Below are positions 6,709-63,297 of a DNA stretch of 64,000 nucleotides, one piece after another. The number at the start of each line of letters is the position of its first letter. Position 1 is the first letter of the stretch. The notes under the pieces are model-generated. The model saw nothing but the letters and a program-made list of their open reading frames with translations, was not told the origin of the DNA and searched no databases. The position numbers and the translations under genes were made by a program. The stretch is taken from IMG/VR virus record IMGVR_UViG_3300020331_000002. One strand, written 5' to 3'. The DNA is from a virus. Taxonomy: Duplodnaviria; Caudoviricetes.

Positions 6709-6773
6709 TAAATCTTGATTGCTCTTTGAGTGTTTGCTATATTAATGACACTTAGAGAGCAAAGCGAGATTTA
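6709..6773 (+). promoter_or_regulatory. sigma70 promoter embedded in a long inverted repeat with the 5'UTR
   Basis: TTGATT(6715)-17-TATATT(6738). TTGCTCTTTGAGTGTT(6719-34) pairs GACACTTAGAGAGCAA(6747-62), 16 bp with G.U pairs. Outer TAAATCTTG/CGAGATTTA, 9 bp. Confidence 0.8.
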
Positions 6774-6776
6774 GAA

Positions 6777-7025
6777 ATGGCAGAATTAACTAGAACAGAT
6801 TTCAAAAAAGCTAAAGAAATTTGCAAAGCGCATGGTGTAAAAGGCTTCCGTAAACTTGCGCTGAAACGTCCATTGTATATTGCAGGCAAGCAATGTATTA
6901 AAATCGAAAACGCTCAAAAACTCCTCATTGACTTGCACAGTGCCGGATACGGTATTCGTGACTACCAAACTTGCTTTGAGCTTGCCCAAAAAGGCATGCT
7001 TGATTGTGTAACTATTTCTTTATAA
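6777..7025 (+). CDS. hypothetical protein
   Basis: 82-aa basic ORF directly behind the promoter. Confidence 0.75.
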   Translation: MAELTRTDFKKAKEICKAHGVKGFRKLALKRPLYIAGKQCIKIENAQKLLIDLHSAGYGIRDYQTCFELAQKGMLDCVTISL

Positions 7026-7035
7026 GGTGAATGAC

Positions 7036-7293
7036 ATGACTTCTGTAGCAATTGATCCTAATACACTTGTTGGCAATGATATTTCTCACAACCGCAGCAC
7101 GTGGCGCGTTACTGACTACTCGCCGTACGATGCTGAAAAGCTGCCAAACTTGGTGCGAGTTTGCGAAGAACATGATAAATTTCCAGGCGTGTTTACCTGT
7201 GCGAAAGTTCTAAAAAGCGGTGAAACTTCAAAGAAAGTCGTTAATTTATTTTTGTGCTTTACAGATGGCAAGTCGTTTGTTAAAATGGTTTAA
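7036..7293 (+). CDS. hypothetical protein
   Basis: SD AAGGTG before ATG 7036. Confidence 0.7.
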   Translation: MTSVAIDPNTLVGNDISHNRSTWRVTDYSPYDAEKLPNLVRVCEEHDKFPGVFTCAKVLKSGETSKKVVNLFLCFTDGKSFVKMV

Positions 7294-7317
7294 AATAAAA
7301 AAACCATTAGGACATTT

Positions 7318-7398
7318 ATGACAGCTAACAAAACGGGCACCAATCCACTTAGGCGTCACACTCAAGTATACCTTGACGCTGCAAACTTCAAATGGTGA
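7318..7398 (+). CDS. 26-aa micro-ORF (not in ORF track)
   Basis: SD AGGA, fills the gap: MTANKTGTNPLRRHTQVYLDAANFKW. Confidence 0.35.
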   Translation: MTANKTGTNPLRRHTQVYLDAANFKW

Positions 7399-7404
7399 AA
7401 CACT

Positions 7405-7557
7405 ATGGTTACCTTAGCAGAAGTTAAGCAAATAGCAAAAGAGAAAGGCATCGAAGCTGAATACGTGTACAACAAAGCACGTAGCCGTTACGAGGTTATC
7501 ATGCCTGACGGTTTCAAGTACAAGTCACTGTCAGACTTCAAAAAGGCAATGCTATGA
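7405..7557 (+). CDS. 50-aa hypothetical protein (not in ORF track)
   Basis: MVTLAEVKQIAKEKG...; ATGA overlap with the next gene. Confidence 0.6.
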   Translation: MVTLAEVKQIAKEKGIEAEYVYNKARSRYEVIMPDGFKYKSLSDFKKAML

Positions 7558-9456: not shown

Positions 9457-9520
9457 TTTACAAAAGATGAAAGGTTGTGTATCTTATAATTAAAACGTTA
9501 ACTTAATAAGGTACACAACT
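9457..9520 (+). promoter_or_regulatory. sigma70 promoter whose -10 region pairs with the downstream RBS
   Basis: TTTACA(9457)-17-TATCTT, plus TATAAT at 9485. GGTTGTGTATCTTAT(9473-87) pairs ATAAGGTACACAACT(9506-20), 15 bp with 2 G.U, ending at ATG 9521. Confidence 0.8.
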
Positions 9521-18143: not shown

Positions 18144-18875
18144 ATGCCGATTAGATTTAAAGGTCCAGTAAGGCCACGTAAACTAATATCACCTGATCCG
18201 ATTAATATTCCGGTTGTTCGTGATAATAAGGCATCGCGTGTTAGGCAAGACGTCGAGTACTTCAAAGCCAACGGAGAAATGCCAAGTGTTGAGCCGACAT
18301 TAGGTCCGCCAGAAGGTCAAGCAATAGGCGACGCTGACGTATCGACGGCCGGGGATAATAAAGCATTCATCGATTACCGAACTGGTCTTGAGTGGGTTCG
18401 GCTTGCCCAAACGAATACATTCACTGACACGACTATCCAAAATGAGCTACAAGAAGGCGGCCAATTCGAAGGGTTTAGAATTGCAAATGAGGCTGAAACG
18501 GAATCATTGCTGCACACAATTACACCTAATTATTTCGACCCCGTTCATGTTTATGCAGTCGATACTCACTACATTGTGCCGGCACAATGGCACAACTGGA
18601 ACTCTATAATGGGTATAACAGGCAACAAACACGGAAGGGACTGGTCGTATGGCATATACGACACCGGTTCTGGCTTCAAACACGGCGGAACTGACGCTTG
18701 GGCTGAATCTAATAGGTTGCCTAATAGGCTGATGAAGTTCAATAAAAGTGAGGCCCTTGACTTTGATTTCATGGGCATATTTTTAGTGTCAGACGGCGGC
18801 AACACCTTGTTGAGTCAAGAGTTCCCTCACTACATGGTTAATAACCCTAACTCGCCATATAACCAAGGAACGTAA
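18144..18875 (+). CDS. MPIRF-family paralog 3: N-module plus Lcl/DUF1566-like domain
   Basis: SD AAGGAGG; DYRTGLEWVRL...GFRIANEAE; ends NNPNSPYNQG. Confidence 0.8.
   Translation: MPIRFKGPVRPRKLISPDPINIPVVRDNKASRVRQDVEYFKANGEMPSVEPTLGPPEGQAIGDADVSTAGDNKAFIDYRTGLEWVRLAQTNTFTDTTIQNELQEGGQFEGFRIANEAETESLLHTITPNYFDPVHVYAVDTHYIVPAQWHNWNSIMGITGNKHGRDWSYGIYDTGSGFKHGGTDAWAESNRLPNRLMKFNKSEALDFDFMGIFLVSDGGNTLLSQEFPHYMVNNPNSPYNQGT
18843..18869 (+). repeat. 27-bp exact direct repeat, copy 2
   Basis: identical to 18109-18135. Confidence 0.9.
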
Positions 18876-18877
18876 CA

Positions 18878-20032
18878 ATGCCAATTAGATTTAGAGGGCC
18901 GGTGAGGCCACGTAAATTAAAATCACCTGATCCGATTAATATGCCTGTTGTTAGGGACAACAAAGTCCCTAAAGTCAAAGCAGAGGTAGAGTATTATAAA
19001 GAACATGGCGAGATGCCTAGCATATCAGGACCTTGGTCCTCTGTTACGACTTATTTTGGTCTATCTTCGAATAGCACAGTAGACCCCATTGCTGGTTTTG
19101 ATGTGTACAATGACGATATCATTGTTATAGCAAATAGAGAAACTTCGTCGGCAGAGTCGTATAAACGCAACGGAAGTACCGGTGAGTGGGAATATGTTGA
19201 CGGCAAATATATTGCGAATATTCGCAACGGTGATATTTTAATAAACGCAGACGACAGCAAAGTGTTTATCGGCGCAACGCATGTTTCTAATTCTACTGGT
19301 ACCGTTATTGAGTGTGGTATAGATTTATCTACGGGCACATTGGCCGGGACGCATACTAGTCGCCCGTCTGGTAATTCACAAGACTATGTATACGACGGCT
19401 CCAGAATAGTGGATGTTGGTAACAACCTTATTATATCTTCTGGTCCCGGGTTTACTGCAAACTCTGCCAGAGCGGGCATTATATGGTTCAGAGACAGGAC
19501 AACTGGCGCAGTTTCGCAGATAGTCAGGAACTTCCAAAACGGGTTGACGAATAGCGGTTTCGGAACTAACAGTGGTAATCACCAACTGGGTTTAGGACAC
19601 AGGGATTATTTATGGAGCGCTTCTACCATAGTAGATGATGGTCGACTGGTCGTTGCGGCTTCGCCGTCAGGTGATAGCGATGCGTTGTTGAATAATAGCT
19701 TCGCTACCGTGTTTACTTGGGATGGCACAACAATTGCTGATATACAACAAATACAAGCACCGGGCAACGGCGAGCGCATGATAGCCGTGTTTAATTCGGA
19801 TACATCCGGGAACTTCTACATGGTTTTAGACAACGGCGACAATACTAGGGACCTTATTGAATACTCATGGAATGGTTCAAGTTATGATCAGATTAGCAGA
19901 GCTAAATGGGGCCTTGCATTTGATATGGTGAGCAGGGAAAGTCTTATTCGAACCCGCACGATGCCAGACGGCTCGCTTCTTATTTCGGCGTCAGACAGCT
20001 CTGGCGAAATAAAACGCATCACGAGGAATTAA
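18878..20032 (+). CDS. MPIRF-family paralog 4: N-module plus beta-propeller-like domain
   Basis: first 50 nt match paralog 1 at 49/50; body colinear with paralog 1. Confidence 0.8.
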   Translation: MPIRFRGPVRPRKLKSPDPINMPVVRDNKVPKVKAEVEYYKEHGEMPSISGPWSSVTTYFGLSSNSTVDPIAGFDVYNDDIIVIANRETSSAESYKRNGSTGEWEYVDGKYIANIRNGDILINADDSKVFIGATHVSNSTGTVIECGIDLSTGTLAGTHTSRPSGNSQDYVYDGSRIVDVGNNLIISSGPGFTANSARAGIIWFRDRTTGAVSQIVRNFQNGLTNSGFGTNSGNHQLGLGHRDYLWSASTIVDDGRLVVAASPSGDSDALLNNSFATVFTWDGTTIADIQQIQAPGNGERMIAVFNSDTSGNFYMVLDNGDNTRDLIEYSWNGSSYDQISRAKWGLAFDMVSRESLIRTRTMPDGSLLISASDSSGEIKRITRN

Positions 20033-20035
20033 TCA

Positions 20036-20803
20036 ATGCCAATTAAATTTAGTGGGCCGGTGAAACCACAAAAACTAAAATCACCAGATCCGATTAATAT
20101 GCCGGTTGTTCGCGATAACAGAGCGCCAAAGATCAAGGCCGATGTAGAATACTACAAAGAAAACGGCGAGATGCCGTCTGTATATGACGGTCCTTACATA
20201 GCGCAAACACAGAACCTGCTCGAAAATAACAAGTTTGCCTGGGCTGATAATCCTGACCAATCATCAACGACAGCGACCACAGCCGATACTTGGACGAATT
20301 CAAATGGTCTATTTCGTATTCACACATACTCTGGGCCTGATATAGAGAAACTAGGTTTGGTAGACGGCGAAGTACTGCGCTACGCACGCGGATCAAATAC
20401 ATCGTATGCACAGATATTCAAGACTTTGGATCTGGATTCGTTAGGTATTAATACTGCTTTGGTTGACGCAGGTGCGGTGACGTTGACTATGGCCGCACTT
20501 TTTGGTGAGGACTATAATGACTCGGATGCCGCAAGGTATAGACTTATACTTAGAAGTGCTGATACCACCCAGCTTGCTACATACAATACCGGATATATAA
20601 GTGTTAATCAATGGTCGTATAGAGAGGTAGCCGACTTGGATGTGCCTGTAAACACACGCTTAATTGATGTTATATTAGATTTTGACAGGAATGCAGGATC
20701 CGGCAGTAACGGTAATATCCTTGCCCCGTATTTAGAATTGAATGTCGTGAACAACGGCACTAACTTGTCTGCATACGAGGCAAACGGGTCAGTATTACTT
20801 TAA
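20036..20803 (+). CDS. MPIRF-family paralog 5: N-module plus galactose-binding-like jelly-roll domain
   Basis: MPIKFSGPVKP module; AQIFKTLDL..GI....VDAG pattern. Confidence 0.75.
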   Translation: MPIKFSGPVKPQKLKSPDPINMPVVRDNRAPKIKADVEYYKENGEMPSVYDGPYIAQTQNLLENNKFAWADNPDQSSTTATTADTWTNSNGLFRIHTYSGPDIEKLGLVDGEVLRYARGSNTSYAQIFKTLDLDSLGINTALVDAGAVTLTMAALFGEDYNDSDAARYRLILRSADTTQLATYNTGYISVNQWSYREVADLDVPVNTRLIDVILDFDRNAGSGSNGNILAPYLELNVVNNGTNLSAYEANGSVLL

Positions 20804-21018
20804 GATTCAACTAGGGCAGCAATACCGCGCCAAGATTTGTATTGCTGCTCTACTTGTAAAAGAGTATCGAACTCTTTGAACCCAGGCCTACCGAAGTTAT
20901 ATGCACGAGCCGCAGCATTGTCGGTAACCATAAGCCAACGATCACCTAACTTTTCAAGTGTCATTTTGTTACCGCGCGACTCTGTGTAAAATTTGTTTTT
21001 GCTAAGCATCTGAATCAT
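20800..21018 (-). CDS. hypothetical protein
   Basis: SD AAGG; behind a strong promoter. Confidence 0.75.
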   Translation of the reverse strand: MIQMLSKNKFYTESRGNKMTLEKLGDRWLMVTDNAAARAYNFGRPGFKEFDTLLQVEQQYKSWRGIAALVES

Positions 21019-21078
21019 AACTATACCTTACTTGTTTAAGTTCAAGTAGAGTATAGCAATGAAACAAATTATTGTCAA
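21016..21078 (-). promoter_or_regulatory. sigma70 promoter whose -10 pairs with the RBS and start codon
   Basis: TTGACA-17-TATACT; on the minus strand GCTATACT-c-TACTTG pairs CAAGTA-a-GGTATAGT, and CAT pairs the ATG. Confidence 0.8.
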
Positions 21079-22283: not shown

Positions 22284-22499
22284 TTATGCGTTTGAACGTT
22301 CAAGCTCTGTTTCGTAACGAGCACACGCTAACGTGTAAGCTTGTTTACGGAACTTGGCGTTTGCAATTTCTTCAAAACCGCTGATTTCGGCCTGTTCTTT
22401 TACCATGTAAAGTGGACTGCCGTTTTTTAACATATCAACGATGTGGATAGCGCGTTTAAGGTTTTGTGTTTTAGCTTCTGTGAATTTTATAGTTTTCAT
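22284..22499 (-). CDS. hypothetical protein
   Basis: 71-aa ORF behind promoter. Confidence 0.7.
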   Translation of the reverse strand: MKTIKFTEAKTQNLKRAIHIVDMLKNGSPLYMVKEQAEISGFEEIANAKFRKQAYTLACARYETELERSNA

Positions 22500-22580
22500 C
22501 TTCTAAACCTGTTTGAGTATCAACTAGACGTTATTGCCTAACTTCTGTGTGTAGTATAATACCTGAGTAGAAGATGTAAA
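22497..22580 (-). promoter_or_regulatory. sigma70 promoter whose spacer pairs with the start codon
   Basis: TTTACA-16-TATACT; CATCTTCTA pairs TAGAAGATG (9 bp including ATG); GGTATTA/TGATACT inner stem. Confidence 0.7.
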
Positions 22581-22848: not shown

Positions 22849-22873
22849 AGTACCACCTCTGTAACATGTCTTA

Positions 22874-22902
22874 AGTCTATATACGTATTATTTATATGTC
22901 AA
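22874..22902 (-). promoter_or_regulatory. sigma70 promoter with TATAAATA in its spacer
   Basis: TTGACA-17-TAGACT; TATAAATA at 22896-22889. Confidence 0.65.
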
Positions 22903-22943
22903 TAAATTTAAAATTGAATTTTTAAAAAAGTAGAAAATAAGTC

Positions 22944-22971
22944 TTGACATTCAATCTTAATACCGTAATAT
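22944..22971 (+). promoter_or_regulatory. sigma70 promoter (divergent)
   Basis: TTGACA-16-TAATAT, AT-rich upstream region. Confidence 0.6.
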
Positions 22972-23010
22972 CGCTGTGAAAGTTGAACACCTAACAAACA
23001 AAAGGAGAGT

Positions 23011-28264: not shown

Positions 28265-28831
28265 ATGGGTAGACCAGTTAAATCTACATACTTCGGAAAA
28301 CCAACCGGCAAACAGGCACAGATTGCATATACCGTGTCTAGTTCTGGTAAGGTACAGCCAATCATTAAAGAAGCTGGCGAAGGCTACAATAGCAAATTTA
28401 AGCTAGAAATAAAAGCTAAAGATGAAGAAGGCGAAGACGTATTGGCAGAACTTTCTGTTTCTGTTAAAGACGGTGCAGTGTCTGAAGTATCAGTAGCACA
28501 AACAGGTGAGTTTCCTGCTAACAAAAAACACACACCGCTAGGCGGTATTCCCGCGCCTGTTTCTGGCGGCGGCGTTATTGTTGGCAAGGGTGTTATTGAC
28601 GAAAAGATCGGCGTTGAAGATGTATTCATCATCAAGCAACGTGGCCAGCGCAAATATGCAATTGGCGCAGTAGCAGACGAAACCCGTACAGGTGTCGGTA
28701 GTCTAGTAGAAAAGGCTGAGTCACTTGGTGACCTGGAAGTATCTGCAGGCGACGCAAAGGTACATACCATCCAGCAATATCAAGTGAAGACATTCGGTGG
28801 TGAAATCAAACCAATTTCCGATATTCTTTAA
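28265..28831 (+). CDS. putative virion structural protein
   Basis: late promoter; SD GAGG; MGRPVKSTYFG N-terminus, beta-rich. Confidence 0.65.
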   Translation: MGRPVKSTYFGKPTGKQAQIAYTVSSSGKVQPIIKEAGEGYNSKFKLEIKAKDEEGEDVLAELSVSVKDGAVSEVSVAQTGEFPANKKHTPLGGIPAPVSGGGVIVGKGVIDEKIGVEDVFIIKQRGQRKYAIGAVADETRTGVGSLVEKAESLGDLEVSAGDAKVHTIQQYQVKTFGGEIKPISDIL

Positions 28832-28894
28832 TTGACAAAGTTTGCAAGATCTGTTATCGTATTGGTAATTATAATAACGATAATGGATCTTGCA
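28832..28894 (+). promoter_or_regulatory. sigma70 promoter with an 18-bp inverted repeat reaching the start codon
   Basis: TTGACA-17-TATCGT. TGCAAGATCTGTTATCGT(28843-60) pairs ACGATAATGGATCTTGCA(28877-94), 18/18 with 2 G.U. Confidence 0.85.
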
Positions 28895-34524: not shown

Positions 34525-34552
34525 TATGTTATGCTCCTTTAAAAGACTATAA

Positions 34553-39600: not shown

Positions 39601-39745
39601 ATATTACTTTTCTCGGAATTCAGGAAATACCGTTCAAATTCTTCCACTTAACTCGGTGACTACTACTAAGATAGAGATAGCTACCGGCAACGTGCCATCA
39701 GGTACAGTTTTATATATGACATATATTGACATATATGGTACTTGA
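36632..39745 (+). CDS. Calx-beta repeat protein (6 repeats) with C-terminal F5/8C-like domain; putative virion adhesin
   Basis: repeated V.EG...TAT.G.DY...TI.NDD units; late promoter. Confidence 0.85.
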   Translation: MQRIQNVVALGTPGEPTPIPEITIDDGSVVEGSGTGSTMLVFPIRLTAPSNASVQVSFSTEVTGSAANEATPGDDYDAVSGAVYTISPGQTQVNAMVAINRDFDAEYDEFVQARITFVSGPGNTTIARSVARGIITNDDGSIGNPYTVSLSGSTVTEGAPGEHPKLEFVVDFGAVTNVQTSFDFETLPTGTATEGVDYQYTQTTVIHPSGSRFAYVYVDIIGDDVLESDETVDARIYNLVAPTGSTISVDTATGTISDNDAPYAVSLATHRPSETDNGAGVSTAMFRLIVSAPNYISAPRRSGGTVKFRTLDSGTATPGVDFEPVDNYVVTIPDGSVYASDSIPVRIYGDYSPESDETVVGEIYDLDTTDNRAFIDTAQASATIVDNDQYAPYRVVRRSTLYDEDDGSAVFRIENTNPTSKPFDGATVQITFETFVKGVANEAVPGTDYVAKTQTVTFTDSSATFFDIPVSLIDNEQLDGNRQLYARIKDMVTNDPRAQLASTETYTTIQNEDTAYFPLLTGSSQSESSSNLVFTVRAYFEDVNGNYVGYSSPPEPITGMFRTLVPTQAQIDNQNYAEPGVDFTPVNTGFTLSGSSVNIIVPIISDLDIESTESVMGEIYNIQSDSPRVIVDRVADHSATGTITNDDQPIVFTVGYTALNVSEGDPGDNSKARFYVTSNRAVAPGKTINVRLTTTSNDRGYTYSAGERLAVAGVDYTAIDQTLTFTNADGVVSDSRKFVDVPIIDDNIEEEDALVFVEIAEISGDDPRGETSTSREYAWVRITDEDYPALQVTWPYPANTGEEYSANQQRTFSEEITVSGGDGNYSHVWYVDKPSLVTEFNGNLLTNYTVRVKEFTGADELITVGLDVSSTDGQTVTNTTTITALSLGAPITYDRMTVIESPWAPEYVFDIGSPYRNTRVSASKPPWSTPPTPSDPSEAATGRGISVIEFDSAINLRAVKFLVGADGAGEPTRFRVRYWTGTEWAIAHGGYYFSRNSGNTVQILPLNSVTTTKIEIATGNVPSGTVLYMTYIDIYGT

Positions 39746-39875
39746 TTTATGAATGAAAATGCCTTATTATAGATTCTAACAACAAGATTGGATAAAAAGT
39801 AAAAATTATCCAACGACAAAACAGAAAGCAAGTCCTAAGAGACTGCCAATAATAATAACAATAATAAGGCATTTT
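39742..39875 (+). promoter_or_regulatory. sigma70 promoter plus 15-bp long-range IR masking the nuclease RBS
   Basis: TTGATT-17-TATTAT; AAAATGCCTTATTAT(39756-70) is the exact reverse complement of ATAATAAGGCATTTT(39861-75); inner TTGGATAA/TTATCCAA hairpin. Confidence 0.85.
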
Positions 39876-39879
39876 GCAC

Positions 39880-41183: not shown

Positions 41184-41456
41184 ATGTCAGACGAAAGACC
41201 AAATGTACGCCACTATAACCAGGAAGACAAGGAGCGCCTCAAAAAGCTGGTTAGAGAAGGGGTAGCGGTGAAACAAGAAGTTAAGGACCTTAACGACGGT
41301 TTAGCCGACGCGGTGAAGGCAGTTGCTGAGGAACTAGACATTCCTGCATCGCAGCTGAAGAAAGCGATTACTATTGCGCACAAACAGAACCTAAGTGATG
41401 AGCGTGCTAAGTTTGAAGAAGTCGAAGACATCTTAGAAACTATAGGATTCAAGTAA
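41184..41456 (+). CDS. dsbA: T4 DsbA-like / GapR-like double-stranded DNA-binding protein
   Basis: helical 90 aa: LKKLVREG..VKQEVKDLND.L.D.VKAVAEELDIPASQLKKAI. Confidence 0.7.
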   Translation: MSDERPNVRHYNQEDKERLKKLVREGVAVKQEVKDLNDGLADAVKAVAEELDIPASQLKKAITIAHKQNLSDERAKFEEVEDILETIGFK

Positions 41457-41793: not shown

Positions 41794-42758
41794 GAAAGAA
41801 CGTACTTGTGCTGGGCTTAGGAATAGGCTCAGTTTATGTTGACGAATTGTCCAAGACCCATGATGTGGACACTCTTGACAATAATCCGGAGTTAGACACG
41901 ACATACAATGAGTTATCTGATCTTGAGGTCATTGATCGCAAGAAGATGTACGACATTGCTATTGTGTGTTTGCCTAATTTCCTACACGAACCAGCAATCG
42001 AAGCGCTGCGAGATTTGGCTGATATCATCCTTGTAGAAAAGCCAGGCTTACCATCTCTTCCTGAATGGCAACGCATGCGCACTGAATGTGAAGTTGAAGG
42101 CACACGACTAGTGATGGCCAAGAACAACATGTACAGAAAAGGTTTAGGTGAGTTCTTTGACTTGGTTGATGTAATGATCGATCATGGCAGCGTCAAAAAG
42201 GTCTGTATTAGTTGGGTCAACAACGCCCGTATTCCTAATCCCGGATCATGGTTTACTGACAAAGACAAAGCCTGGGGCGGCGTTGGCCGCGATCTTATGC
42301 CGCACTTGTTAAACGAACTATTCATGACAATGTACACCGATCCTGCAGATGAGCCATGCGACTGGATCAAGTCCGCAAAACTCACACAACGCTACGATAT
42401 AGACAGCGCATCAAAGTTATGTGGTGATCCGGAATACGCGAATGGTGATGCCACAGGCGTTTATAACGTAGACGATCGAGCTGTGATAGTTGCAGAAGAC
42501 GACGGTGTGGAATACCATCTCACTGCTGACTGGGCACACGACTATGGCGCCGAAGATGTAGGCATATCAGTTGAGCTTACCGAAGGTTATATGCTGTATC
42601 GTTTAGGCTTATGTCCTAACGAGTGCTACGGTGATATGGTAAACACGATGCTCGCGTTTGTTGACGATCAAACATTCTGGGAAGAACAAGCCGAGATTGA
42701 CGATTTCACGCTAGGTGCAATCGACTATTTGTATGAAAATGGAGGCGAAAATGTCTGA
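41790..42758 (+). CDS. Gfo/Idh/MocA-family oxidoreductase
   Basis: VLGLGIG Rossmann motif, CLPNFLH, ILVEKPG, GGVGRDLMPH. Confidence 0.85.
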   Translation: MRKNVLVLGLGIGSVYVDELSKTHDVDTLDNNPELDTTYNELSDLEVIDRKKMYDIAIVCLPNFLHEPAIEALRDLADIILVEKPGLPSLPEWQRMRTECEVEGTRLVMAKNNMYRKGLGEFFDLVDVMIDHGSVKKVCISWVNNARIPNPGSWFTDKDKAWGGVGRDLMPHLLNELFMTMYTDPADEPCDWIKSAKLTQRYDIDSASKLCGDPEYANGDATGVYNVDDRAVIVAEDDGVEYHLTADWAHDYGAEDVGISVELTEGYMLYRLGLCPNECYGDMVNTMLAFVDDQTFWEEQAEIDDFTLGAIDYLYENGGENV

Positions 42759-43713
42759 GAAGATTAGATACCTGCACGCCTATGGCGACAGAAAGATTGT
42801 GTTTAGTGAAATAGACAAACCTTCTTGTCCTGATAACGGCGTATTAGTAAAAACTATTATGACTGGTGTATGTCGTTCAGACGTAGCACAGTACCTTGGT
42901 GATGAAAAAGGCGTGCCGTTTGGTATGTTCGGTCACGAAGGTCTTGGCGAAGTAGTTGAGATTGGTAAAGATTGCCATAAACCGGGACTAAAAATCGGTT
43001 CTATAGTCAGCACTTGGAGCGACCCCGCGTATGCTGATTACTATCCGGCCAAGATGAATGAGTTTGTTATTGTCCCGGAAGCTGATCCTAAGTATATCTT
43101 GCAGCCGGTGGCATGTGCGATCAACATTCTCATGCAGACTATTAAATTCATGGAGCGCATGAATTTAGAAGGCGAAGAAATCCTGCTTCTTGGCACTGGC
43201 TTTATGAGTACTATCATCGGTGACGCTGCTAAAGCCCGCGGGATTGACATGACTGTCGTCGGTCGCGCTAATACCGAGAAGTGGGATTCGCTTGGTTTTA
43301 AACGTTACGACACCAGTGCTGAATTGTGTGACGAAATAAAAAATAAAACGCGTAAAAATTTTAGTGTAGTCATAGACTTATCGTCAAAAGAAGAAAACTT
43401 TTACGCCATTTCTGAAACCCTTGCTGGTGACGAAGCGTTAATATGTTATGCAGGCACTCCTATGAGTGATGTGAAAACAAACTTCTTTGCCAACTGCTGG
43501 AAATGTCATACGTTAATTATGCCTAGCCCCAGAAACCGTGACTTTAATGATAGTATGGCAGAGTCTGCGAAACTTATTGAAGAAGGTGTTCTTGACACAG
43601 AAAAGCTTTGGACTTGCGGTTATACCCGTGATGTTGAAGCTGACGTGATTCAAGCATTTGAAGACGGGTCTGAAAGGACACCGGATTATATCCGGGGCTA
43701 CATTGTCTGGTAA
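42751..43713 (+). CDS. Zn-dependent medium-chain dehydrogenase (GroES-like ADH)
   Basis: GVCRSD, GHEGLG, QPVAC, LGTGFM; lacks the structural-Zn loop; SD GGAGG before ATG 42751. Confidence 0.85.
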   Translation: MSEKIRYLHAYGDRKIVFSEIDKPSCPDNGVLVKTIMTGVCRSDVAQYLGDEKGVPFGMFGHEGLGEVVEIGKDCHKPGLKIGSIVSTWSDPAYADYYPAKMNEFVIVPEADPKYILQPVACAINILMQTIKFMERMNLEGEEILLLGTGFMSTIIGDAAKARGIDMTVVGRANTEKWDSLGFKRYDTSAELCDEIKNKTRKNFSVVIDLSSKEENFYAISETLAGDEALICYAGTPMSDVKTNFFANCWKCHTLIMPSPRNRDFNDSMAESAKLIEEGVLDTEKLWTCGYTRDVEADVIQAFEDGSERTPDYIRGYIVW

Positions 43714-43721: not shown

Positions 43722-46655
43722 ATGTATATTGACGCAATAAAAGACGCTAAGAATAATAAAATACACACGGTCAACAGGGTTAACGGCGAACGAATTTATA
43801 AGTCGTACCCGATCGACTGGTCTTTTTATTACGACGATTCAACCGGCGAACACATGAGTTGGTATAATACACCAGTCAAGAAAGTGGAGCCGACAAGTGC
43901 CGCTGACTTTAAAAAGTTGGTGGGGTCTTTTGGTAATCGTAGACTTTACGAGTCTGACGTTAACCACGTGTTTAGATGCTTAGAGCAGCATTACCCTGAT
44001 ACGAGTCAGAGTCCCGACTTGCATGTTGCTTTTTTCGATATCGAGACTGACTTTGACGAAGAAATGGGATATTCGTCACCGACAGAAGCATTTAATCCTA
44101 TTACGTCAATTGCTGTATACTTGCAATGGTGTAATACTATGGTGTGTTTGGCAGTGCCGCCTCCTACGTTATCGTGGGAAGAGGCAAAAGCCATTGCAGC
44201 GCAGGTCCCTGATGTCATACTGTGCGCCACCGAGAAAGAAATGCTACAAGATTTCTTGAGCATTATTGAAGATGCTGACGTATTGTCTGGCTGGAACAGT
44301 GCAATGTACGATATTCCGTACACTATTCACCGCTTGCAGAAAACTATAGGCGGCGAAGCTGCACGACAAATGTGCCTTTGGGGACACATGCCACAGCGCA
44401 AGAAAGTGAATCACTTCGGTAAAGAAGAAGTGACATATTCGCTTATAGGACGACAGCATTTGGATTATCTTGATCTGTACAAGAAGTACACGTATGAAGA
44501 GAAACAAAGTTACAAGCTGAACTCAATTGCTGAAGCCGAGTTAGGCGAGCAGAAAGTCGAGTACCAAGGCACGCTTGATGACCTGTACAAGAAAGACTTT
44601 AAAAAGTTTTTAGAGTACAACATTCAAGATACCAAGCTACTTGATAGCCTAGACGAAAAGCTCAAGTATATTGACCTGGTTAACACCATTGCACACAACA
44701 ACCAGGTGCCGATCCAAACAGCACTGGGCACAGTGTCTATGATGGAACAGGTCATCACTGTTGAAGCACATAACAACGGGTTTATAGTTCCGGACAAACG
44801 TAAAGATATTACGGACGACGGGCAAGCCGCAGGCGGATGGGTTAGTAGGCCTAAAAAGGGATTACACCGCTGGGTAGGCAGCTCGGATTTGAACTCACTT
44901 TATCCGTCAGTTATCCGTGCATTTAACATGAGTCCTGAAACGATTGTTGGGCAAGTAGATATGTCTTACACTCGTAGTTGTGTTGAAGAATATATCGCTA
45001 AAGGATCCAAGTATACATTCTCCGGCTGGTGGAATGATCGTTTCAATATTCTTGAAATGGAAGCGTTTTATGACGGCAGCAAGACTACGCCTGTTAAACT
45101 ACACATTGAAGACAACGGCAAGAAGGGGCCTATACTTGATATAACAGGGCGTGAATTACGTGATGTTATTTTCAGTGAAGATCATGACTGGTGTATAAGT
45201 GCTAACGGGACTATATTTGATAATAGTCGTCAAGGTACTGTGCCCAGCTTGCTTTCAAGATGGTATAACGAACGTAAACAATTACAGAAAGTAATGAAAC
45301 GTCTAAAGTTCCTTGCAGCGGCCAACTATGAAGTGCCCAGCGATCTAGTTGCGCACTTTGCAGCTGATGAAGAAAAAGAACTTACCAAGAACGACGTTTA
45401 CGACTTTCCGCTTGATGCGTTTGACGAGATGGTCAACAACAAAGACGTTGAGACACTTAAAAGCTTTATGGACACATGGGGCTTGACTGTACACAACGGC
45501 CACTTTGCACCTTGTCCTGCTTGGAAGACTGCGTACACGTATGCCTGTGACTATTGGGATAAACAACAATTAGTTCGTAAGATTAACCTGAACTCGTGTT
45601 ACGGCGGACTATTGAACGCGCACATGAAGTTCTACGATCAGCGAATTGGTCAGAGTACTACGCTAAGTGGCCGTTCAATCACACGTCACATGACTGCTAA
45701 GACTGCTGAATTGCTTGAAGGCAAATACGACATAGAAGACGTGAAGTCTATTATCTACAACGATACTGACTCTGTGTATTTCTCAGTATGGCCTGTAATC
45801 AAAGACAAGGTAGAAGCGGGTGAAATGGAATGGAACAAAGACATAGCTGTGAAGCTGTATGACGATGTATCCGATCAGGTGAGCGATACTTTCCCTGAGT
45901 TCCTTAAAACGAAGTTTAATGTACCCGAACACCGCGGTTCTATTATTGCAAGTGGGCGTGAAATTGTTGCTGAGTCTGGATTGTATATTACCAAGAAACG
46001 TTATGCTGCTCTAGTGTATGACGATGAAGGTGTTAGACGCGATACAGACGGCAAGCCCGGTAAACTAAAAGCCATGGGTCTTGACTTGCGACGAAGCGAC
46101 ACCCCTGTTTATATCCAGGAATTTTTAAAAGAGATTCTGTTGGATACGCTACAGAACAAAGGTGAAAGCTATGTCGTTGACAAGATACTTGACTTTAAGA
46201 AAAACGTACAAGGCAAGCTCAAGCCGTGGCAGCGAGGAGTACCGAAAGCTGTAAACGGCATGTACAAGTATACCAAAAAGAAAGAACAACACATCGAGAA
46301 TCTGATGCGCGGTGTGAAGTCATCCTTGGCTATCCCGGGTCACGTACAAGCTAGTTTCAACTGGAACGAGTTGCTTGAATCCAATGGCGACATGGAGTCT
46401 ACTAAGATAACAGACGGCACGAAAGTTATTGTATGTTACTTAAAGACTAACGAGCGCAACTATACGTCTGTTGCGTACCCGGTGGACCAGTCACGTTTAC
46501 CTACTTGGTTTACTGATTTGCCATTTGACGTTGATGACATGGAAGAACGTGTTCTTGACAAGAAAGTAAGTAACTTACTTTCGGTGCTTAAGTGGGACTT
46601 AAGCATGGCTAGTAAACAAGGCGAGGTATTTGGTAACTTGTTTACTTTTAATTAA
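43722..46655 (+). CDS. polB: family B DNA polymerase
   Basis: FFDIET exonuclease motif, DLNSLYPS, KINLNSCYG, YNDTDS, KKRYA. Confidence 0.95.
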   Translation: MYIDAIKDAKNNKIHTVNRVNGERIYKSYPIDWSFYYDDSTGEHMSWYNTPVKKVEPTSAADFKKLVGSFGNRRLYESDVNHVFRCLEQHYPDTSQSPDLHVAFFDIETDFDEEMGYSSPTEAFNPITSIAVYLQWCNTMVCLAVPPPTLSWEEAKAIAAQVPDVILCATEKEMLQDFLSIIEDADVLSGWNSAMYDIPYTIHRLQKTIGGEAARQMCLWGHMPQRKKVNHFGKEEVTYSLIGRQHLDYLDLYKKYTYEEKQSYKLNSIAEAELGEQKVEYQGTLDDLYKKDFKKFLEYNIQDTKLLDSLDEKLKYIDLVNTIAHNNQVPIQTALGTVSMMEQVITVEAHNNGFIVPDKRKDITDDGQAAGGWVSRPKKGLHRWVGSSDLNSLYPSVIRAFNMSPETIVGQVDMSYTRSCVEEYIAKGSKYTFSGWWNDRFNILEMEAFYDGSKTTPVKLHIEDNGKKGPILDITGRELRDVIFSEDHDWCISANGTIFDNSRQGTVPSLLSRWYNERKQLQKVMKRLKFLAAANYEVPSDLVAHFAADEEKELTKNDVYDFPLDAFDEMVNNKDVETLKSFMDTWGLTVHNGHFAPCPAWKTAYTYACDYWDKQQLVRKINLNSCYGGLLNAHMKFYDQRIGQSTTLSGRSITRHMTAKTAELLEGKYDIEDVKSIIYNDTDSVYFSVWPVIKDKVEAGEMEWNKDIAVKLYDDVSDQVSDTFPEFLKTKFNVPEHRGSIIASGREIVAESGLYITKKRYAALVYDDEGVRRDTDGKPGKLKAMGLDLRRSDTPVYIQEFLKEILLDTLQNKGESYVVDKILDFKKNVQGKLKPWQRGVPKAVNGMYKYTKKKEQHIENLMRGVKSSLAIPGHVQASFNWNELLESNGDMESTKITDGTKVIVCYLKTNERNYTSVAYPVDQSRLPTWFTDLPFDVDDMEERVLDKKVSNLLSVLKWDLSMASKQGEVFGNLFTFN

Positions 46656-46664
46656 AACGGAATC

Positions 46665-46697
46665 CGACTTGACAAAAACTGTCAAGTCGCGTATAAT
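46665..46697 (+). promoter_or_regulatory. consensus sigma70 promoter with a 10-bp perfect palindrome over the -35
   Basis: TTGACA(46669)-17-TATAAT(46692); CGACTTGACA-aaaac-TGTCAAGTCG. Confidence 0.85.
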
Positions 46698-46740
46698 ACA
46701 TCAGATAATAATAAGAAGAAGCCTAGGAGCTCACACACAT

Positions 46741-47511
46741 ATGTCTAAAGTAACCTACGAAGGTCTAAACGATCTTCTTCAATTCACTCACCGTCTTGGT
46801 TTCATCCCTGCTGTTAAGCTAACAGGTACAGCGGAAGAGACTCAGGCAGCGTCTATCCTGGAAGACAAGTCTGTTGTCTTTTTTGGTAAACTGCGCACAC
46901 CAATCAGCGAACTACAGGGGCAAGTAGTAGGCCTTTCTCGTATGAACGTACTTGACGGCTTTATGCGTTATCCCGACTTTACACCGACTAAAAACGGTAC
47001 TATCTCGTTCAAGAAAGAAAACCACCCATCTCATGGTGATGTTGTTAGTGAAGTGCACTTTGAAAGTAAAGCTGGTACGACTGGTAGCTATCGTTTCGTA
47101 GGCCGTACTACAATCGAAGAACAGATTCGTGTACCGGAGTTCCGTGGCGTTAACTGGGACATTACCTACGTACCTACTAAAGAAGACTACGAAGACTTAA
47201 AATACCTAGCTGGTATCTTCGCAGCGCAAGAAGCTGTATTCATTCCTGAAATTGCAGGCGATGAACTTGTATTCAGCATCGGTACCCAAGCAAGTGACCG
47301 CACACAAATTCACCTAAACACTGGTGAACTCACTGTGGAAAACACGTTGAAAGGTAATTTGAGCTGGCCGCTAGATAAGGTACTAACTATTCTAGCTAAA
47401 GGCATGGACGCAGAGTGTAAGATGTTTATTTCTTCAGCCGGTGCGCTTAAGATTGAGATCGACACTGGTGTTGGCCTTTACGAGTACATCCTGACAGCGA
47501 AGCCTGTTTAA
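46741..47511 (+). CDS. sliding clamp-like DNA polymerase accessory protein
   Basis: position after the polymerase, 256 aa beta-rich; SD AGGAG before ATG 46741; family assignment from memory. Confidence 0.6.
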   Translation: MSKVTYEGLNDLLQFTHRLGFIPAVKLTGTAEETQAASILEDKSVVFFGKLRTPISELQGQVVGLSRMNVLDGFMRYPDFTPTKNGTISFKKENHPSHGDVVSEVHFESKAGTTGSYRFVGRTTIEEQIRVPEFRGVNWDITYVPTKEDYEDLKYLAGIFAAQEAVFIPEIAGDELVFSIGTQASDRTQIHLNTGELTVENTLKGNLSWPLDKVLTILAKGMDAECKMFISSAGALKIEIDTGVGLYEYILTAKPV

Positions 47512-49322: not shown

Positions 49323-49388
49323 TTGCAATTTTTGGTAGTTCTGCTATACTACTTAAAACCGTAGAATAAAAATTATAAGGTTGTGTAA
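49323..49388 (+). promoter_or_regulatory. sigma70 promoter with an imperfect IR to the 5'UTR
   Basis: TTGCAA-16-TATACT (TGn); AATTTTT..GTTCTGC pairs GTAGAAT-AAAAATT. Confidence 0.65.
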
Positions 49389-57482: not shown

Positions 57483-57618
57483 TGTGCTATGATGCTCGTT
57501 CTCTAATCATAGTCACATAAGCAAACAATAATCTCCAGTCATTGCCTGACTCGCTGTGCTAGCAGACATGTACTATCGCAGATACTGAAGAGTCGCTTTA
57601 AGCGACTCTTCAAACATC
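57483..57618 (-). ncRNA. candidate structured RNA or cis-element (3 hairpins)
   Basis: 12-bp perfect IR 57586-57612 extended by G.U pairs on the minus strand; 5-bp hairpin 57537-57551; 11-bp hairpin 57483-57517. Confidence 0.4.
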
Positions 57619-60058: not shown

Positions 60059-60388
60059 TCACTCCATCGGCGGCACGGTTATTTTTCCTTGAAACGCAAG
60101 TAGAGCAATGGTTTCTGGCTCTATCTTAACAAACGTTTCACGGGTTTTATTAGACGCCCGGTTAGAGTGGCTAGGGGTACCAACTCGCACAGATGATCCT
60201 ATCCACATAGAAGCGCCGGAGGCAGTAGGCTTTTTGATGCGGCCCAGCTTTAAACCCGACGACTTGTAAACACTCACAGCAACTATGTCGCCTGCACGTA
60301 TTTCATTTCCGAGACAGTCAGTCCCTACTTCATCTGATGTATCTGACATAAGTTCCTCAACTTTTTGGCGATATGATTTTTGCGTCAT
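60059..60388 (-). CDS. hypothetical protein (SH3-like)
   Basis: DCLGNEIRAGDIVAV. Confidence 0.7.
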   Translation of the reverse strand: MTQKSYRQKVEELMSDTSDEVGTDCLGNEIRAGDIVAVSVYKSSGLKLGRIKKPTASGASMWIGSSVRVGTPSHSNRASNKTRETFVKIEPETIALLAFQGKITVPPME

Positions 60389-60720
60389 TACTCTTCTTTA
60401 AGATTCAGGAGGACAGGAGTGTCAAACCCGCCTCGTATTTCTCTCTTGTACTTACGCTTATCTTCAATGCCGGTCTCAGAAACCTTACCAATTTTGATAA
60501 TTGCTGCCAAAACTTCAAACACGTCGGCTAGCTCTTCTTCAAGCGCGTCAGTATCACCGCGATAAATTTCAGCCAGAACTTCTTCGACTTCTTCGTGCGC
60601 TTTGTCACATAGTAAGGCAAGGTGATCTTGAGTGGTAAGCTTGTCTACTGGAAGTAGAGGTAGTGGGTCAGATGCAATATCGGGGATTTTATCCCTGATC
60701 AATTTATGCGGGTATTTCAT
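60388..60720 (-). CDS. MazG/HisE-like nucleoside triphosphate pyrophosphohydrolase
   Basis: KLIRDKIP, EEVEE, EELADVFEV. Confidence 0.88.
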   Translation of the reverse strand: MKYPHKLIRDKIPDIASDPLPLLPVDKLTTQDHLALLCDKAHEEVEEVLAEIYRGDTDALEEELADVFEVLAAIIKIGKVSETGIEDKRKYKREIRGGFDTPVLLNLKEE

Positions 60721-60728: not shown

Positions 60729-60777
60729 CCTCTTGTTATTATCTCCTTATTATAAGGCAAGAGGCTGTCAAAATCAA
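60729..60777 (-). promoter_or_regulatory. sigma70 promoter with an IR masking the RBS
   Basis: TTGATT-17-TATAAT; CCTCTTG..TTAT pairs ATAA-CAAGAGG; CCTTAT-A-ATAAGG palindrome over the -10. Confidence 0.75.
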
Positions 60778-61025
60778 GACTTGGTTGAGAACTTTCCGGA
60801 AAATGTGTCTTCGTGTAACGAGTTTGTGAGGTGACTGATATACGCCATATCAGCCGCACGCACTGCGATCATGTTTTCGACATAGTCGCGCATGTCATGG
60901 GCATCGATAGCCTGATCTAAGGTGCCTGCGAAGCTGCTAATCATAGGTATGGTAGACACACCCGTATAGACAGCGACTCTGGCCTGATCTTTAAATTGTT
61001 GAGCTACTTTTATGCCATCAGCCAT
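60774..61025 (-). CDS. hypothetical protein
   Basis: SD AAGGAG. Confidence 0.7.
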   Translation of the reverse strand: MADGIKVAQQFKDQARVAVYTGVSTIPMISSFAGTLDQAIDAHDMRDYVENMIAVRAADMAYISHLTNSLHEDTFSGKFSTKS

Positions 61026-61383
61026 CTTTGTCTCCTTGCTTGTTGGATAAAAACCCGGGTATCAGATCCAAGTATGCGTCGGTGATAGGACACCCTAACA
61101 ACCTCAAACGAGCAACTGTTTCGGTATCCATCTTCATTGCGCCTTTGCCTTTCCAGTTATCGTACTCGTCATCTACCATACAAAACGGCAGATACTTTTT
61201 CCAGCGCATATATTCATCAACATCGTGTCTGATCATCGGGTGCATCAGAGGTTTCAACTCGTCAGCACTCATTTTACCGCGCAATAAGGCTTCCGTAAAA
61301 GATCCCGGACTCACACCGTAAATCCAGAACATTTCAACAGCCGAACAAATGTTTGTGTCTAAGCTAAATTTTAAATCGCCCAT
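61018..61383 (-). CDS. hypothetical protein
   Basis: SD GGAG. Confidence 0.7.
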   Translation of the reverse strand: MGDLKFSLDTNICSAVEMFWIYGVSPGSFTEALLRGKMSADELKPLMHPMIRHDVDEYMRWKKYLPFCMVDDEYDNWKGKGAMKMDTETVARLRLLGCPITDAYLDLIPGFLSNKQGDKDG

Positions 61384-61847
61384 GTGAACTCCAGATCACT
61401 ATCAGAAATCGGCTCGCCGTTCTTGTGCATCATCTTAATAATTTTAACGTAATCCTCGCGCAGCCTCTTCAGTTTATCCTCGCATTCTTCGCGTATAATA
61501 GATATAGTCTCGTCGAGATTAGATTCCAAAACGCCGGTTGCCATAGTCCAATAATTTCTTTCTATAAAACATTCACGTATCCGGCGAAGTGCCTGCGCGT
61601 CTGTCACTTCTACTTTGACATGCTCGACATAATGCGCACGTAATGCGGCTAGGCGTGATGTAAGCGTATCGGCTATGGATTTGTCAATAAACATCATCGC
61701 GTCGGAGACTACTTCTAAATCAAGGATAGATGTGCTTCGGGGATATTCATAATCACCGTCCTTTTCAATCATGCCAAGTATAAAATGCAAGTTATCCATA
61801 TCTTTTTGGATTAGGCTCACATATGGATGTAGTGGATCATTGCTCAT
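61371..61847 (-). CDS. hypothetical protein
   Basis: SD AAGGAG. Confidence 0.75.
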   Translation of the reverse strand: MSNDPLHPYVSLIQKDMDNLHFILGMIEKDGDYEYPRSTSILDLEVVSDAMMFIDKSIADTLTSRLAALRAHYVEHVKVEVTDAQALRRIRECFIERNYWTMATGVLESNLDETISIIREECEDKLKRLREDYVKIIKMMHKNGEPISDSDLEFTWAI

Positions 61848-62283
61848 TGATATGCTCCTTTACACCCTCGGTTAATGTTTGTTTAATTTTGGTAGCCAAG
61901 TTCCAAAATTTCTCTGCTAGTTTTTGTTCCAACGCATTGTGTTTCAACGTGTAGAGGTCTTTTCTTATTACTTGTCTGCGCAATGACTCTATCATCCCGG
62001 TACTTCTTCTGAGATCAAGGTGGTGCTGGCGTGTCACCGCTTCTTGTGAACCATCTAGAACACTGCGTGATGCCAAGGCATGTGAGTATGCATCATACAA
62101 ATCAATATAGGCACGAATCGCGTCAATCGTCTCTTGCCATTTTAGGGTGTAATCGAGGTTTTCAATCAAAGTTAGCCTAAACGGTGCAGACGCGAATATA
62201 CTGTCGCTCTGGTTGACACCGTCAATCTTTGAAACCATAGCGAGTGCATCTATCAGATTAGACCTTAGTTGCTTGGTATTCAT
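61837..62283 (-). CDS. hypothetical protein
   Basis: SD AAGGA; TAATG overlap. Confidence 0.75.
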   Translation of the reverse strand: MNTKQLRSNLIDALAMVSKIDGVNQSDSIFASAPFRLTLIENLDYTLKWQETIDAIRAYIDLYDAYSHALASRSVLDGSQEAVTRQHHLDLRRSTGMIESLRRQVIRKDLYTLKHNALEQKLAEKFWNLATKIKQTLTEGVKEHINEQ

Positions 62284-62957
62284 TATTGTGTCATTCCTTC
62301 TGCTATTTTATCAGCCAACGTTCGTACTTCGTTAGTGAGAACTTCGTGCTTGAGTGTCCATTCACCTGATGTCATGAGTTTCTTTATCGCAATCGCAACC
62401 AGCATATATGCGGTAGTAGGCGATACTCGAGTTTCAAGACGCTTGCATAATAAAGCAGGATCACCTAGTATGCCGTTGTCCATCAAATTCAACTCACCAA
62501 GTAACGCCTTGCACGTTTTGTCAAATTTAGCAACGTCAGTTCCGCGGCCGTGGCGTGCAACGCCCGGGTAGGTTTTAATGATATAATTAACGTAAGGCTG
62601 CACAGCGAATAAGTCATATCCAATCGGATCAGTTGGTCGTGTAAATTTATGACGTGCTAATTGCAACGCGCACAAATCAACCAACATATTAGATGAGTGG
62701 GCACGTACCTTGCGCCGCATTTCGAGGCCAAAGCCGTACAGCTTACCGAGTCTCTCGCATAATCGATCAGCGTTGTAGGCAGCTATACGAAACCGGGCCT
62801 GACCTAATATGAGGTGGCCGTTGTCGCGTCTGACATCGTCGATTAACTCACGGTCGTCAGCTGTGAGTTTTTTATACTCGGCTGGGGTATCATATAACCA
62901 CCCTAACATAGCGTCGACAAACACCAACAAGGTGTGCCGGTATGGCCTTTTAGACAT
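62283..62957 (-). CDS. hypothetical protein
   Basis: SD AAGGA. Confidence 0.75.
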   Translation of the reverse strand: MSKRPYRHTLLVFVDAMLGWLYDTPAEYKKLTADDRELIDDVRRDNGHLILGQARFRIAAYNADRLCERLGKLYGFGLEMRRKVRAHSSNMLVDLCALQLARHKFTRPTDPIGYDLFAVQPYVNYIIKTYPGVARHGRGTDVAKFDKTCKALLGELNLMDNGILGDPALLCKRLETRVSPTTAYMLVAIAIKKLMTSGEWTLKHEVLTNEVRTLADKIAEGMTQ

Positions 62958-63225
62958 TTGCGCATTCCTTCAATACAGAGTCGATGTGTGTCACTGCCTC
63001 TTCAACTTGCTCTTCGACGGAACCGTTGCACTTGCCTTCTTTGCGCAATTCGACAACTAAGTCGTATCGTTCCATAGGTTGAAGATGATTGATCCAAATA
63101 GAATACGCCGGGTCAACTAAATCAACCGGTGTGCCTAACTCTTCAAACAATTTTTGATCAACTGCTTTGCGTGCCTTCTCTGCACTAAGTATTCTGTCTT
63201 TAAAAATCATCTTATCACCTTTCAT
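62950..63225 (-). CDS. hypothetical protein
   Basis: start 63225 or 63210; behind promoter. Confidence 0.7.
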   Translation of the reverse strand: MKGDKMIFKDRILSAEKARKAVDQKLFEELGTPVDLVDPAYSIWINHLQPMERYDLVVELRKEGKCNGSVEEQVEEAVTHIDSVLKECANV

Positions 63226-63240
63226 CTATTAAGCAAGAAT

Positions 63241-63297
63241 TAAGTTTCTCGCTACTGTTAGATATTATAGGGCAACTCAGTCAGAATAGCAAACTTA
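63241..63297 (-). promoter_or_regulatory. sigma70 promoter within the 3' end of the upstream gene, with IR to the 5'UTR
   Basis: TTGCTA-17-TATAAT; TAAGTTT-GCTA..CTG pairs CAG-TAGC..AAACTTA. Confidence 0.65.

Follow-up and report, generated by a model that had tools for sequence, protein, structure and literature searches.

The early messenger RNA of bacteriophage T7 carries intercistronic RNase III sites, which are not known to be built around promoters or, in general, to mask ribosome binding sites (RBSs). In bacteriophage T4, occlusion of the RBS on particular transcripts only is established for the genes e, soc, 49, and I-TevI, and it is described as well for I-TevII/III, segB, and mobE of phage Aeh1 (PMC3014915). 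Furthermore, the T4-type phages RB49/phi1, PST, and nt-1 contain promoter-early stem-loop (PeSL) cassettes, in which early promoters are overlapped by stem-loops that were interpreted as terminators or attenuators and as recombination sites (PMC2839356, PMC4122927). Here we describe hairpins that join predicted promoters to the RBSs of the genes behind them in IMG/VR virus record IMGVR_UViG_3300020331_000002, of which a stretch of 64 kb (the window) was analysed. An earlier note on this DNA had claimed that most sigma70 promoters of the window form the left arm of an inverted repeat whose right arm usually covers the Shine-Dalgarno sequence (SD) or the start codon of the next gene. The observation holds for about a third of the promoter junctions and fails as a statement on most of them. 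According to the best-supported interpretation, the hairpins would be a variant of the T4 mechanism that mostly uses early promoters and occurs in a distant uncultured lineage; the principle is not new and is textbook knowledge for T4 e and soc.

In common with T4 occlusion, the SD and/or the AUG is predicted to pair with an upstream segment, and the promoter lies inside the structure, the transcript from its own predicted start being devoid of the 5' arm. The translational silence of long read-through transcripts, shown in T4, is a prediction here. Unlike in T4, the internal promoters of hairpins A-G (Table 1) are of the sigma70 (early) type and do not belong to the late gp55 TATAAATA-like class. 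Among the hairpins, the late-class motif (C/T)TAAATA, 31-43 nt before the ATG, is found only at 36592-36627 and at several sites of the related genome G001 (see below), which thereby resemble the T4 cases. The gate would keep later or longer transcripts from being translated, whereas that of T4 blocks early translation of a late gene, and many small genes of unknown function are found here in place of the lysis and endonuclease genes of T4.

With the PeSL cassettes, the hairpins share sigma70-like promoters that precede small ORFan genes in short gaps, G·T pairs in the stems, and an SD and start codon at the 3' end of the cassette. In PeSLs the stem-loop lies between -35 and -10 or over -10, and here it is the 5' arm that overlaps this part of the promoter. 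PeSL stems, however, are short, lie within the promoter and have a motif in common (e.g., GGGG...CCCC), whereas the stems described here are site-unique and comprise 12-27 pairs. Their 3' arm is located in the 5' untranslated region (UTR) over the SD/AUG, and the promoter is thus enclosed, not flanked. Only the palindrome at 46665-46689 has the appearance of a textbook PeSL. Similar to the RNase III sites of T7, the hairpins are long, imperfect and intergenic in a polycistronic phage transcript, and A and D are long enough for such a site, unlike most of the helices. Apart from the papers on T4 and PeSLs, nothing relevant to RBS gating at early promoters turned up in a literature search.

Origin of the window

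The window is densely coding, with a G+C content of 42-46% and long co-directional gene blocks. It encodes a T4-family (family-B) DNA polymerase (43722-46655). With 37-41% identity, the best tblastn matches of this gene in the phage collection belong to jumbo phages of the type represented by Atu_ph07, RaK2, and Vibrio 2.275.O, and the lineage is thus distant; a megablast search of the same collection with 8 kb of the window gave no match. The nearest record is G001, a 306.5-kb IMG/VR genome with terminal repeats, which is collinear with the window at ~89-92% identity. The public runs containing window sequence are marine metagenomes. Judged by the polymerase matches, the 306.5-kb relative and the marine runs, the source of the window is therefore an uncultured marine jumbo phage that is distantly related to the T4 superfamily. 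In IMG/VR and the JGI metagenomes, G001-type copies were the only ones found. Ten strain contigs were gathered via cluster members and provide two to four variants per site. Protein searches returned one 80%-identical homologue for a 95-aa protein and none outside its own 90% cluster for a 425-aa protein.

Folding of the promoter-associated inverted repeats

The eleven inverted repeats listed in the earlier note were folded at the coordinates given there, each against 200 dinucleotide shuffles. Six of them (A-F) lie far beyond the shuffles, with z between -5 and -8, and 60729(-) is marginal. The remaining four, namely 22497-22576(-) (z -2.0/-1.7), 36061-36118 (-1.0), 49327-49374 (-1.2), and 63241-63297(-) (-0.8), are like chance. 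Among the sites described there as weaker, the one at 5340 is marginal, and those at 11195, 11730, and 28149(-) have z at or above 0. Because the coordinates of the earlier note frame the stems, folding was repeated in a neutral frame that is not fitted to them and extends from 8 nt before the -35 box to ATG+3, for 23 frames at promoter-like sites. In this frame the signal is strong for A, B, C, D, and F, moderate for E as well as for 5340 and 63292(-) (z -2.6), and marginal for G. No signal was observed at 11191, 11728, 22902(-), 22944, 28149(-), 34845, 36063, 43190, 49323, and 58408(-).

The 15-bp helix of F is the longest perfect helix in the window; by a first-order Markov model, 0.05 helices of this length are expected per 64 kb, compared to 1.3 for the 11-bp helix of E, and both are in excess of this expectation. 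As a detector, the count of perfect Watson-Crick helices was abandoned, since it caught E and F only and missed the other stems, which contain G·U pairs or bulges. The raw minimum free energy of 70-nt sliding windows was discarded as well: coding windows of higher GC content matched the cassettes in folding, and composition-corrected z-scores and helix statistics were therefore used.

Table 1. Promoter-associated stems of the window. Promoters, transcription starts and opening costs are predictions; opening cost is the rise on read-through RNA relative to RNA from the predicted local start.
Feature	Position	Strand	5' arm and promoter elements	3' arm and gene	Stem	z, listed coordinates	z, neutral frame	Rise in RBS opening cost (kcal/mol)
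Hairpin A	6709-6773	+	6709-6734, over -35 TTGATT (6715-6720) and spacer; -10 TATATT (6738-6743) in loop	6747-6773, 5' UTR of gene 6777-7025; predicted start ~6750	25 pairs incl. 4 G·U, about -30 kcal/mol	-7.0	-7.1	+1.9
Hairpin B	9473-9520	+	9473-9493, overlaps -10 TATCTT (9480-9485); -35 TTTACA (9457-9462)	9498-9520, over SD (AAGG), to -1 of ATG 9521	-16.4 kcal/mol	-5.3	-5.1	+12.3
Hairpin C	21016-21061	-	21061-21043, holds -10 TATACT (21055-21050); -35 TTGACA (21078-21073)	21034-21016, over SD (AAGG) and ATG 21018 of gene 20800-21018	-16.2 kcal/mol	-5.1	-5.3	+10.6
Hairpin D	28843-28894	+	28843-28864, over spacer and extended -10 TG-n-TATCGT (28855-28860); -35 TTGACA (28832-28837)	28872-28894, reaches A of ATG 28894	22 pairs, -25 kcal/mol	-8.0	-7.0	+15.1
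Hairpin E, two-tier	35262-35336	+	outer 35262-35271, inner 35284-35294; -35 TTGACT (35277-35282); -10 TATTAT (35299-35304) bracketed by inner stem	inner 35306-35316; outer 35326-35336, over ATG 35329	-26.2 kcal/mol; inner stem an 11-bp perfect helix	-5.2	-2.9	+7.1
Hairpin F, long-range	39748-39882	+	39756-39770 (15 bp exact, extended to 39748), overlaps -10 TATTAT (39765-39770); -35 TTGATT (39742-39747)	39861-39875 (extended to 39882), over SD (AAGG) and ATG 39880	-26.9 kcal/mol	-7.0	-4.2	+11.1
Hairpin G, short, marginal	60729-60764	-	CCTCTTG 60764-60758, in spacer of TTGATT-17-TATAAT (60777-60749)	CAAGAGG 60735-60729, SD of gene 60388-60720		-3.5 (tight frame)	-1.75 (empirical p 0.05)	+6.9
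Hairpin at late-like promoter, absent from earlier list	36592-36627	+	36592-36602, enters CTAAATAC motif 36600-36607	36617-36627, at -15 to -5 of ATG 36632 (1037-aa gene)	11 pairs
Marginal stem after terminator	5337-5400	+	TTGCTT -35 region	SD region (AAGG) of gene 5399-5668	-15 kcal/mol		-2.5 (empirical p 0.017)

Pairing of promoters with their own ribosome binding sites

For all 105 genes, the RBS segment from -18 to +4 was paired with the 82 nt upstream of it or with shuffles of these. A complementarity with z below -5 is restricted to the genes behind D (-7.2), B (-6.2), and C (-5.4). The genes behind 22500 and 36568 have values near -3, and none of the translationally coupled genes scores. 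In a cognate test, which preserves the promoter and SD motifs, the upstream part of each predicted promoter was paired with the 5' UTR of every promoter. For 7 promoters of the window, the cognate pair outranks all 17 non-cognate ones, with ~1 such case expected among 18. Throughout the 306.5 kb of G001, ~8 of 51 are clearly complementary, nearly all of them in the part homologous to the window. Of 34 TAAATA-type promoters across G001, 6 pair best with their cognate 5' UTR, with a single case in the window at 36592-36627. This hairpin has z -4.6 against shuffles, a duplex z of ~-3, and z -4.0 in the cognate test in G001. The promoter-like site at 43190 reaches z -3.2 in the cognate test but 0.0 against shuffles and was dropped.

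Opening costs were calculated for positions -14 to +3, both on RNA from the predicted start and with 150 nt of upstream sequence added. For the six sites B-G, the predicted cost is 2-6 kcal/mol on local RNA and 9-21 kcal/mol on read-through RNA, a rise of 7-15 kcal/mol. All seven hairpins A-G have a 5' arm that ends in the spacer or the -10 box and a predicted start in the loop or the 3' arm. As folded, the 3' arm of B-F reaches a point between -1 and +6 of the ATG, and that of G reaches the SD. The claim that the right arm covers the SD or ATG thus stands for B-G and is weak for A, where the arm reaches -4.

The promoters of A-G match the -35/-10 consensus at 9-11 of 12 positions, four of them with TG, and such matches are common by chance. 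Sense-strand matches of at least 9/12 occur in 12 of 15 co-directional gaps of 50-130 nt, with ~0.09 expected per gap (hand count), and two of the three such gaps devoid of a sigma70-type match contain the late-like motif. The promoters are therefore regarded as predictions, supported mainly by their clustering in short intergenic gaps.

Strand bias and conservation

Opposed bases in the seven stems comprise 14 G·U, which pair on the sense strand only, and 3 A·C, which would pair on the antisense strand only (binomial p 0.013); this agrees with the remark in the earlier note that G·U pairs work on the sense strand alone. In 5 of 7 stems, folding of the sense strand gives the greater stability, by up to 13 kcal/mol (for A, -29.2 kcal/mol on the sense and -16.3 kcal/mol on the antisense strand). 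As also noted before, the arms lack a common sequence: all-against-all matches are at most 12 nt long and consist mostly of promoter hexamers. A search of Rfam with the window gave no match either, and the hairpins therefore represent an architecture, not a repeat family.

Relative to G001, stems diverge by 2.5%, other non-coding DNA by 5.4%, and coding DNA by 8.9%, and 5 of 6 stem transitions keep the pair, e.g., by replacing C-G with U·G or A-U with G·U. The sole stem change of C in G001 is of the former type, with pairing surviving on the sense RNA only. The 15-bp core of B is unchanged in three strain variants, and the arms of F differ between strains at 0 of 30 bases, in contrast to 5-7 changes in the 90-nt loop. 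In G001 and strain contig L026, a C insertion turns the outer stem of E into a perfect 11-mer with the AUG region. The cassette of D is 97-100% identical in one strain with flanking genes at 80-93% identity, and D is unchanged in a Logan contig whose downstream protein is 80% identical. Similarly, the stem at 36592-36627 is constant in three strain variants with varying loop and flank. For the marginal stem at 5337-5400, ~9 substitutions relative to G001 fall between the arms and almost none within them, the arms themselves being the -35 region and the SD.

Terminators, late-like promoters and transcripts

Strong stems occur only at co-directional junctions without an intervening terminator. 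Promoters following clear terminators (5340, 11191, and 49323) as well as two in the divergent gap 22849-23010 are without a strong stem. The trend towards stronger stems where no terminator precedes the promoter, pointed out in the earlier note, is consistent, with 7 of 13 co-directional terminator-less junctions compared to 0 of 5 that follow a terminator or are divergent (one-sided Fisher p ~0.05, hand-computed). None of the hairpins is followed by a U-run, and the terminator scan lists none of them.

The motif (C/T)TAAATA(C) is present in the window at 28227, 35792, 36600, and 53558 on the plus strand and at 34559 on the minus strand, 31-43 nt before start codons, and at many more sites in G001. 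Four of these copies precede the starts of genes 28265, 35826, 36632, and 53596 by 31-38 nt. We presume that it is probably the late-type promoter of this phage, as it resembles the T4 TATAAATA. Both D and F are situated where a gene with the late motif precedes a gene with a sigma70-type promoter: gene 28265-28831 upstream of D has the late-like CTAAATAC motif at 28227, and gene 36632-39745 upstream of F has a late-like promoter. Therefore, read-through of the "wrong" temporal class is to be expected at these two joints.

Metatranscriptome contigs span E and F, and RNA crossing these two junctions thus probably exists. Over the 20 kb examined in one marine metatranscriptome, depth is greatest for a contig (28243-28842) that covers gene 28265-28831. 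This contig stops at 28842, which is the 5' base of hairpin D, and depth beyond is ~6-fold lower, although contigs cannot show RNA ends. This hints as much at processing or attenuation as at translation.

A possible gate on read-through transcripts

With modest confidence we favour the view that the hairpins gate translation according to the transcript, in the manner of the T4 "promoter inside a hairpin". Each affected gene would possess a promoter of its own, the spacer or -10 region of which complements the SD/AUG region of the gene. RNA from this promoter would begin 3' of the complementary segment and leave the RBS free, whereas read-through RNA from the upstream co-directional gene would contain both arms and fold into a helix of 12-27 pairs (-14 to -30 kcal/mol) in which the SD and/or the AUG is hidden. 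The downstream cistron on read-through RNA would be poorly translated and, when untranslated, possibly exposed to Rho or decay. The gene would thus be tied to the activity period of its own promoter, and terminators at compact junctions, e.g., the late-gene/early-promoter joints at 28.8 kb and 39.8 kb, would be superfluous. The analysis shows the helices, their departure from chance, their location with respect to promoter motifs and start codons, the bias to the sense strand and their conservation; where transcription starts, whether and how much RNA reads through and how translation responds are predictions of the model.

As a prediction, the proposal of the earlier note that local transcripts are open and read-through transcripts closed agrees with the geometry of six to seven sites, the opening costs, the G·U bias and the lack of stems after terminators and in the divergent gap. 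As a systematic sigma70 device it does not hold. Such stems are present at only about a quarter to a third of the promoter junctions of the window (5-7 of ~20) and at ~8 of 51 in the whole of G001, and TAAATA-type late-like promoters show the same design, in conflict with a restriction to sigma70 promoters.

Several observations weigh against gating. Two thirds of the promoter junctions lack a stem, and predicted promoters with 9/12 matches are about as frequent as in shuffles in three of four scans. Hairpin A is the most stable one, yet its 3' arm stops at -4 and the predicted cost of opening the RBS rises by only 1.9 kcal/mol. The register for the G·U count was taken from the sense-strand fold, which favours a G·U excess, and the stems are conserved in part because their arms include -35, -10, and SD elements. 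Double compensatory changes are absent among the relatives, all of which are at least 88% identical. Finally, the promoter-embedded palindrome at 46665-46689 does not touch any RBS. RBS occlusion therefore cannot explain every promoter-associated stem, and the stems of this genome are not all of one function.

If translational gating is true, a gene-dense phage separates temporal classes without spending sequence on terminators, and an early gene right behind a late gene (28.8 kb, 39.8 kb) stays silent on late read-through RNA. The published PeSL stem-loops could then be reread as partly translational devices, extended to a lineage without a cultured member. The compact rule, with a 5' arm placed in the spacer or -10 region and a 3' arm on the SD/AUG, would predict starts and temporal classes in uncultured phages, and synthetic operons could borrow the hairpins as small natural insulators. 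Clean and testable as the pattern is, it would not surprise a T4 specialist, and it rests wholly on prediction.

It is tempting to speculate further that gene-specific, promoter-gated translation is a general insulation grammar at sigma70-type and TAAATA-type promoters alike. The hairpin would take the place of a terminator wherever co-directional genes meet in a compact junction, the gene would be translatable only from the transcript of its own promoter, and read-through RNA would be cleared by Rho or decay. The late-gene trick of T4 would then be one instance of a broader and older principle that extends across the T4 superfamily out to marine jumbo phages. We regard this generalisation as possible but doubtful.

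Alternative explanations

The hairpins may instead act on the upstream transcript, as RNase III sites similar to the intercistronic ones of T7, as exonuclease barriers or as attenuators without a U-tract, and thereby separate or stabilise the upstream message; such functions could coexist with RBS occlusion. RNase III needs ~20 bp of near-continuous double-stranded RNA, which A (25 pairs) and D (22 pairs) provide, while B and E are borderline and C, F, and G, with helices of at most 15 bp (15 in F, 7+5 in G), are too short. PeSL stem-loops attenuate transcription in reporter assays (PMC2839356). The contig end at 28842 with its drop in depth points in the same direction, with the reservation on contig ends given above, as does the position of the palindrome 46665-46689, off any RBS directly after the DNA polymerase gene. 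Against this reading stand the missing U-runs and the negative terminator scan, and an action on the upstream message leaves unexplained why the 3' arms often end exactly at the SD/AUG and why the 5' arms are always located upstream of the predicted start. Considering both sides, we judge it unlikely that an action on the upstream transcript is what the hairpins are for.

An action of the repeats as DNA, be it as cruciforms or single-strand hairpins modulating the promoter, as protein-binding palindromes or as recombination hot spots for modular shuffling, appears very improbable. The repeats do overlap with elements of the promoters, PeSLs have been linked to recombination (PMC2839356, PMC4122927), cassette D is more conserved than either flank, as at a mosaic joint, and the perfect palindrome over the -35 box at 46665-46689 is operator-like. 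However, due to the G·U excess and the weaker antisense fold, many of the pairs do not exist in DNA, and as the arms lack a common sequence, neither a common binding protein nor recombination homology is available to them. The 90-nt loop of F is unsuited to a cruciform. Of the three indels that separate the window from G001, the one at ~7326 is an internal gene deletion that, unlike a PeSL exchange, is not bounded by a cassette, and those at 18862-20803 and 57559-57618 are located away from A-G. We give hardly any credence to the stems being functionless by-products of AT-rich, motif-laden intergenic DNA or relics of small-gene acquisition. In favour of this, 4 of the 11 listed sites and, with one exception, the sites described as weaker do no better than shuffles, and coding windows are often equally low in raw folding energy. 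Against it stand the z-scores of -5 to -8, the seven cases in which the cognate pair is the best of 18, the lower divergence of stems compared to loops and other non-coding DNA, and the consistent position relative to the predicted start and the RBS. Translational gating remains the reading that we prefer for A-G.

Other features of the window

The gap 46656-46745 after the DNA polymerase gene contains a perfect consensus promoter (TTGACA-17-TATAAT, 46669-46697), the -35 box of which is situated inside the perfect 10-bp palindrome with 5-nt loop at 46665-46689. This element is identical in G001 and looks like an operator or a textbook PeSL. The gene following the gap probably starts at ATG 46741 (SD AGGAG) and not at TTG 46630. 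At 43190-43251, a promoter-like TTGGCA-16-TATCAT lies 25 nt before the in-frame internal ATG 43249 of gene 42715-43713, just downstream of a 10-bp helix at 43143-43167; this ATG may be an internal start, at a site whose fold has no support against shuffles (z 0.0).

A gene for a NAMPT-like protein (476 aa, NAMPT_N and NAPRTase), intact in strain contigs L030 and L031, is split in the window into the open reading frames 3840-4772 and 4786-5283 by one extra G in a G/C run near 4760, which is either a frameshift or an assembly error. At 7319-7404, a remnant is present of a 169-aa gene that is intact in G001 (~105.7-106.1 kb); its first 9 and last ~75 bases are kept, and ~430 bp are deleted internally. 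The indel 18862-20803 corresponds to two genes of a paralogous array (18878-20032 and 20036-20803) that are absent from G001, and in place of 57559-57618, G001 carries ~1.5 kb. A Phage_DsbA-like gene is located at 41184-41456. On the minus strand, 33456-34563 encodes an SLT-type transglycosylase (33456-34229) and a Holin_2-3 protein (34207-34563), which, according to Pfam matches on strain contigs, are likely a lysis pair.

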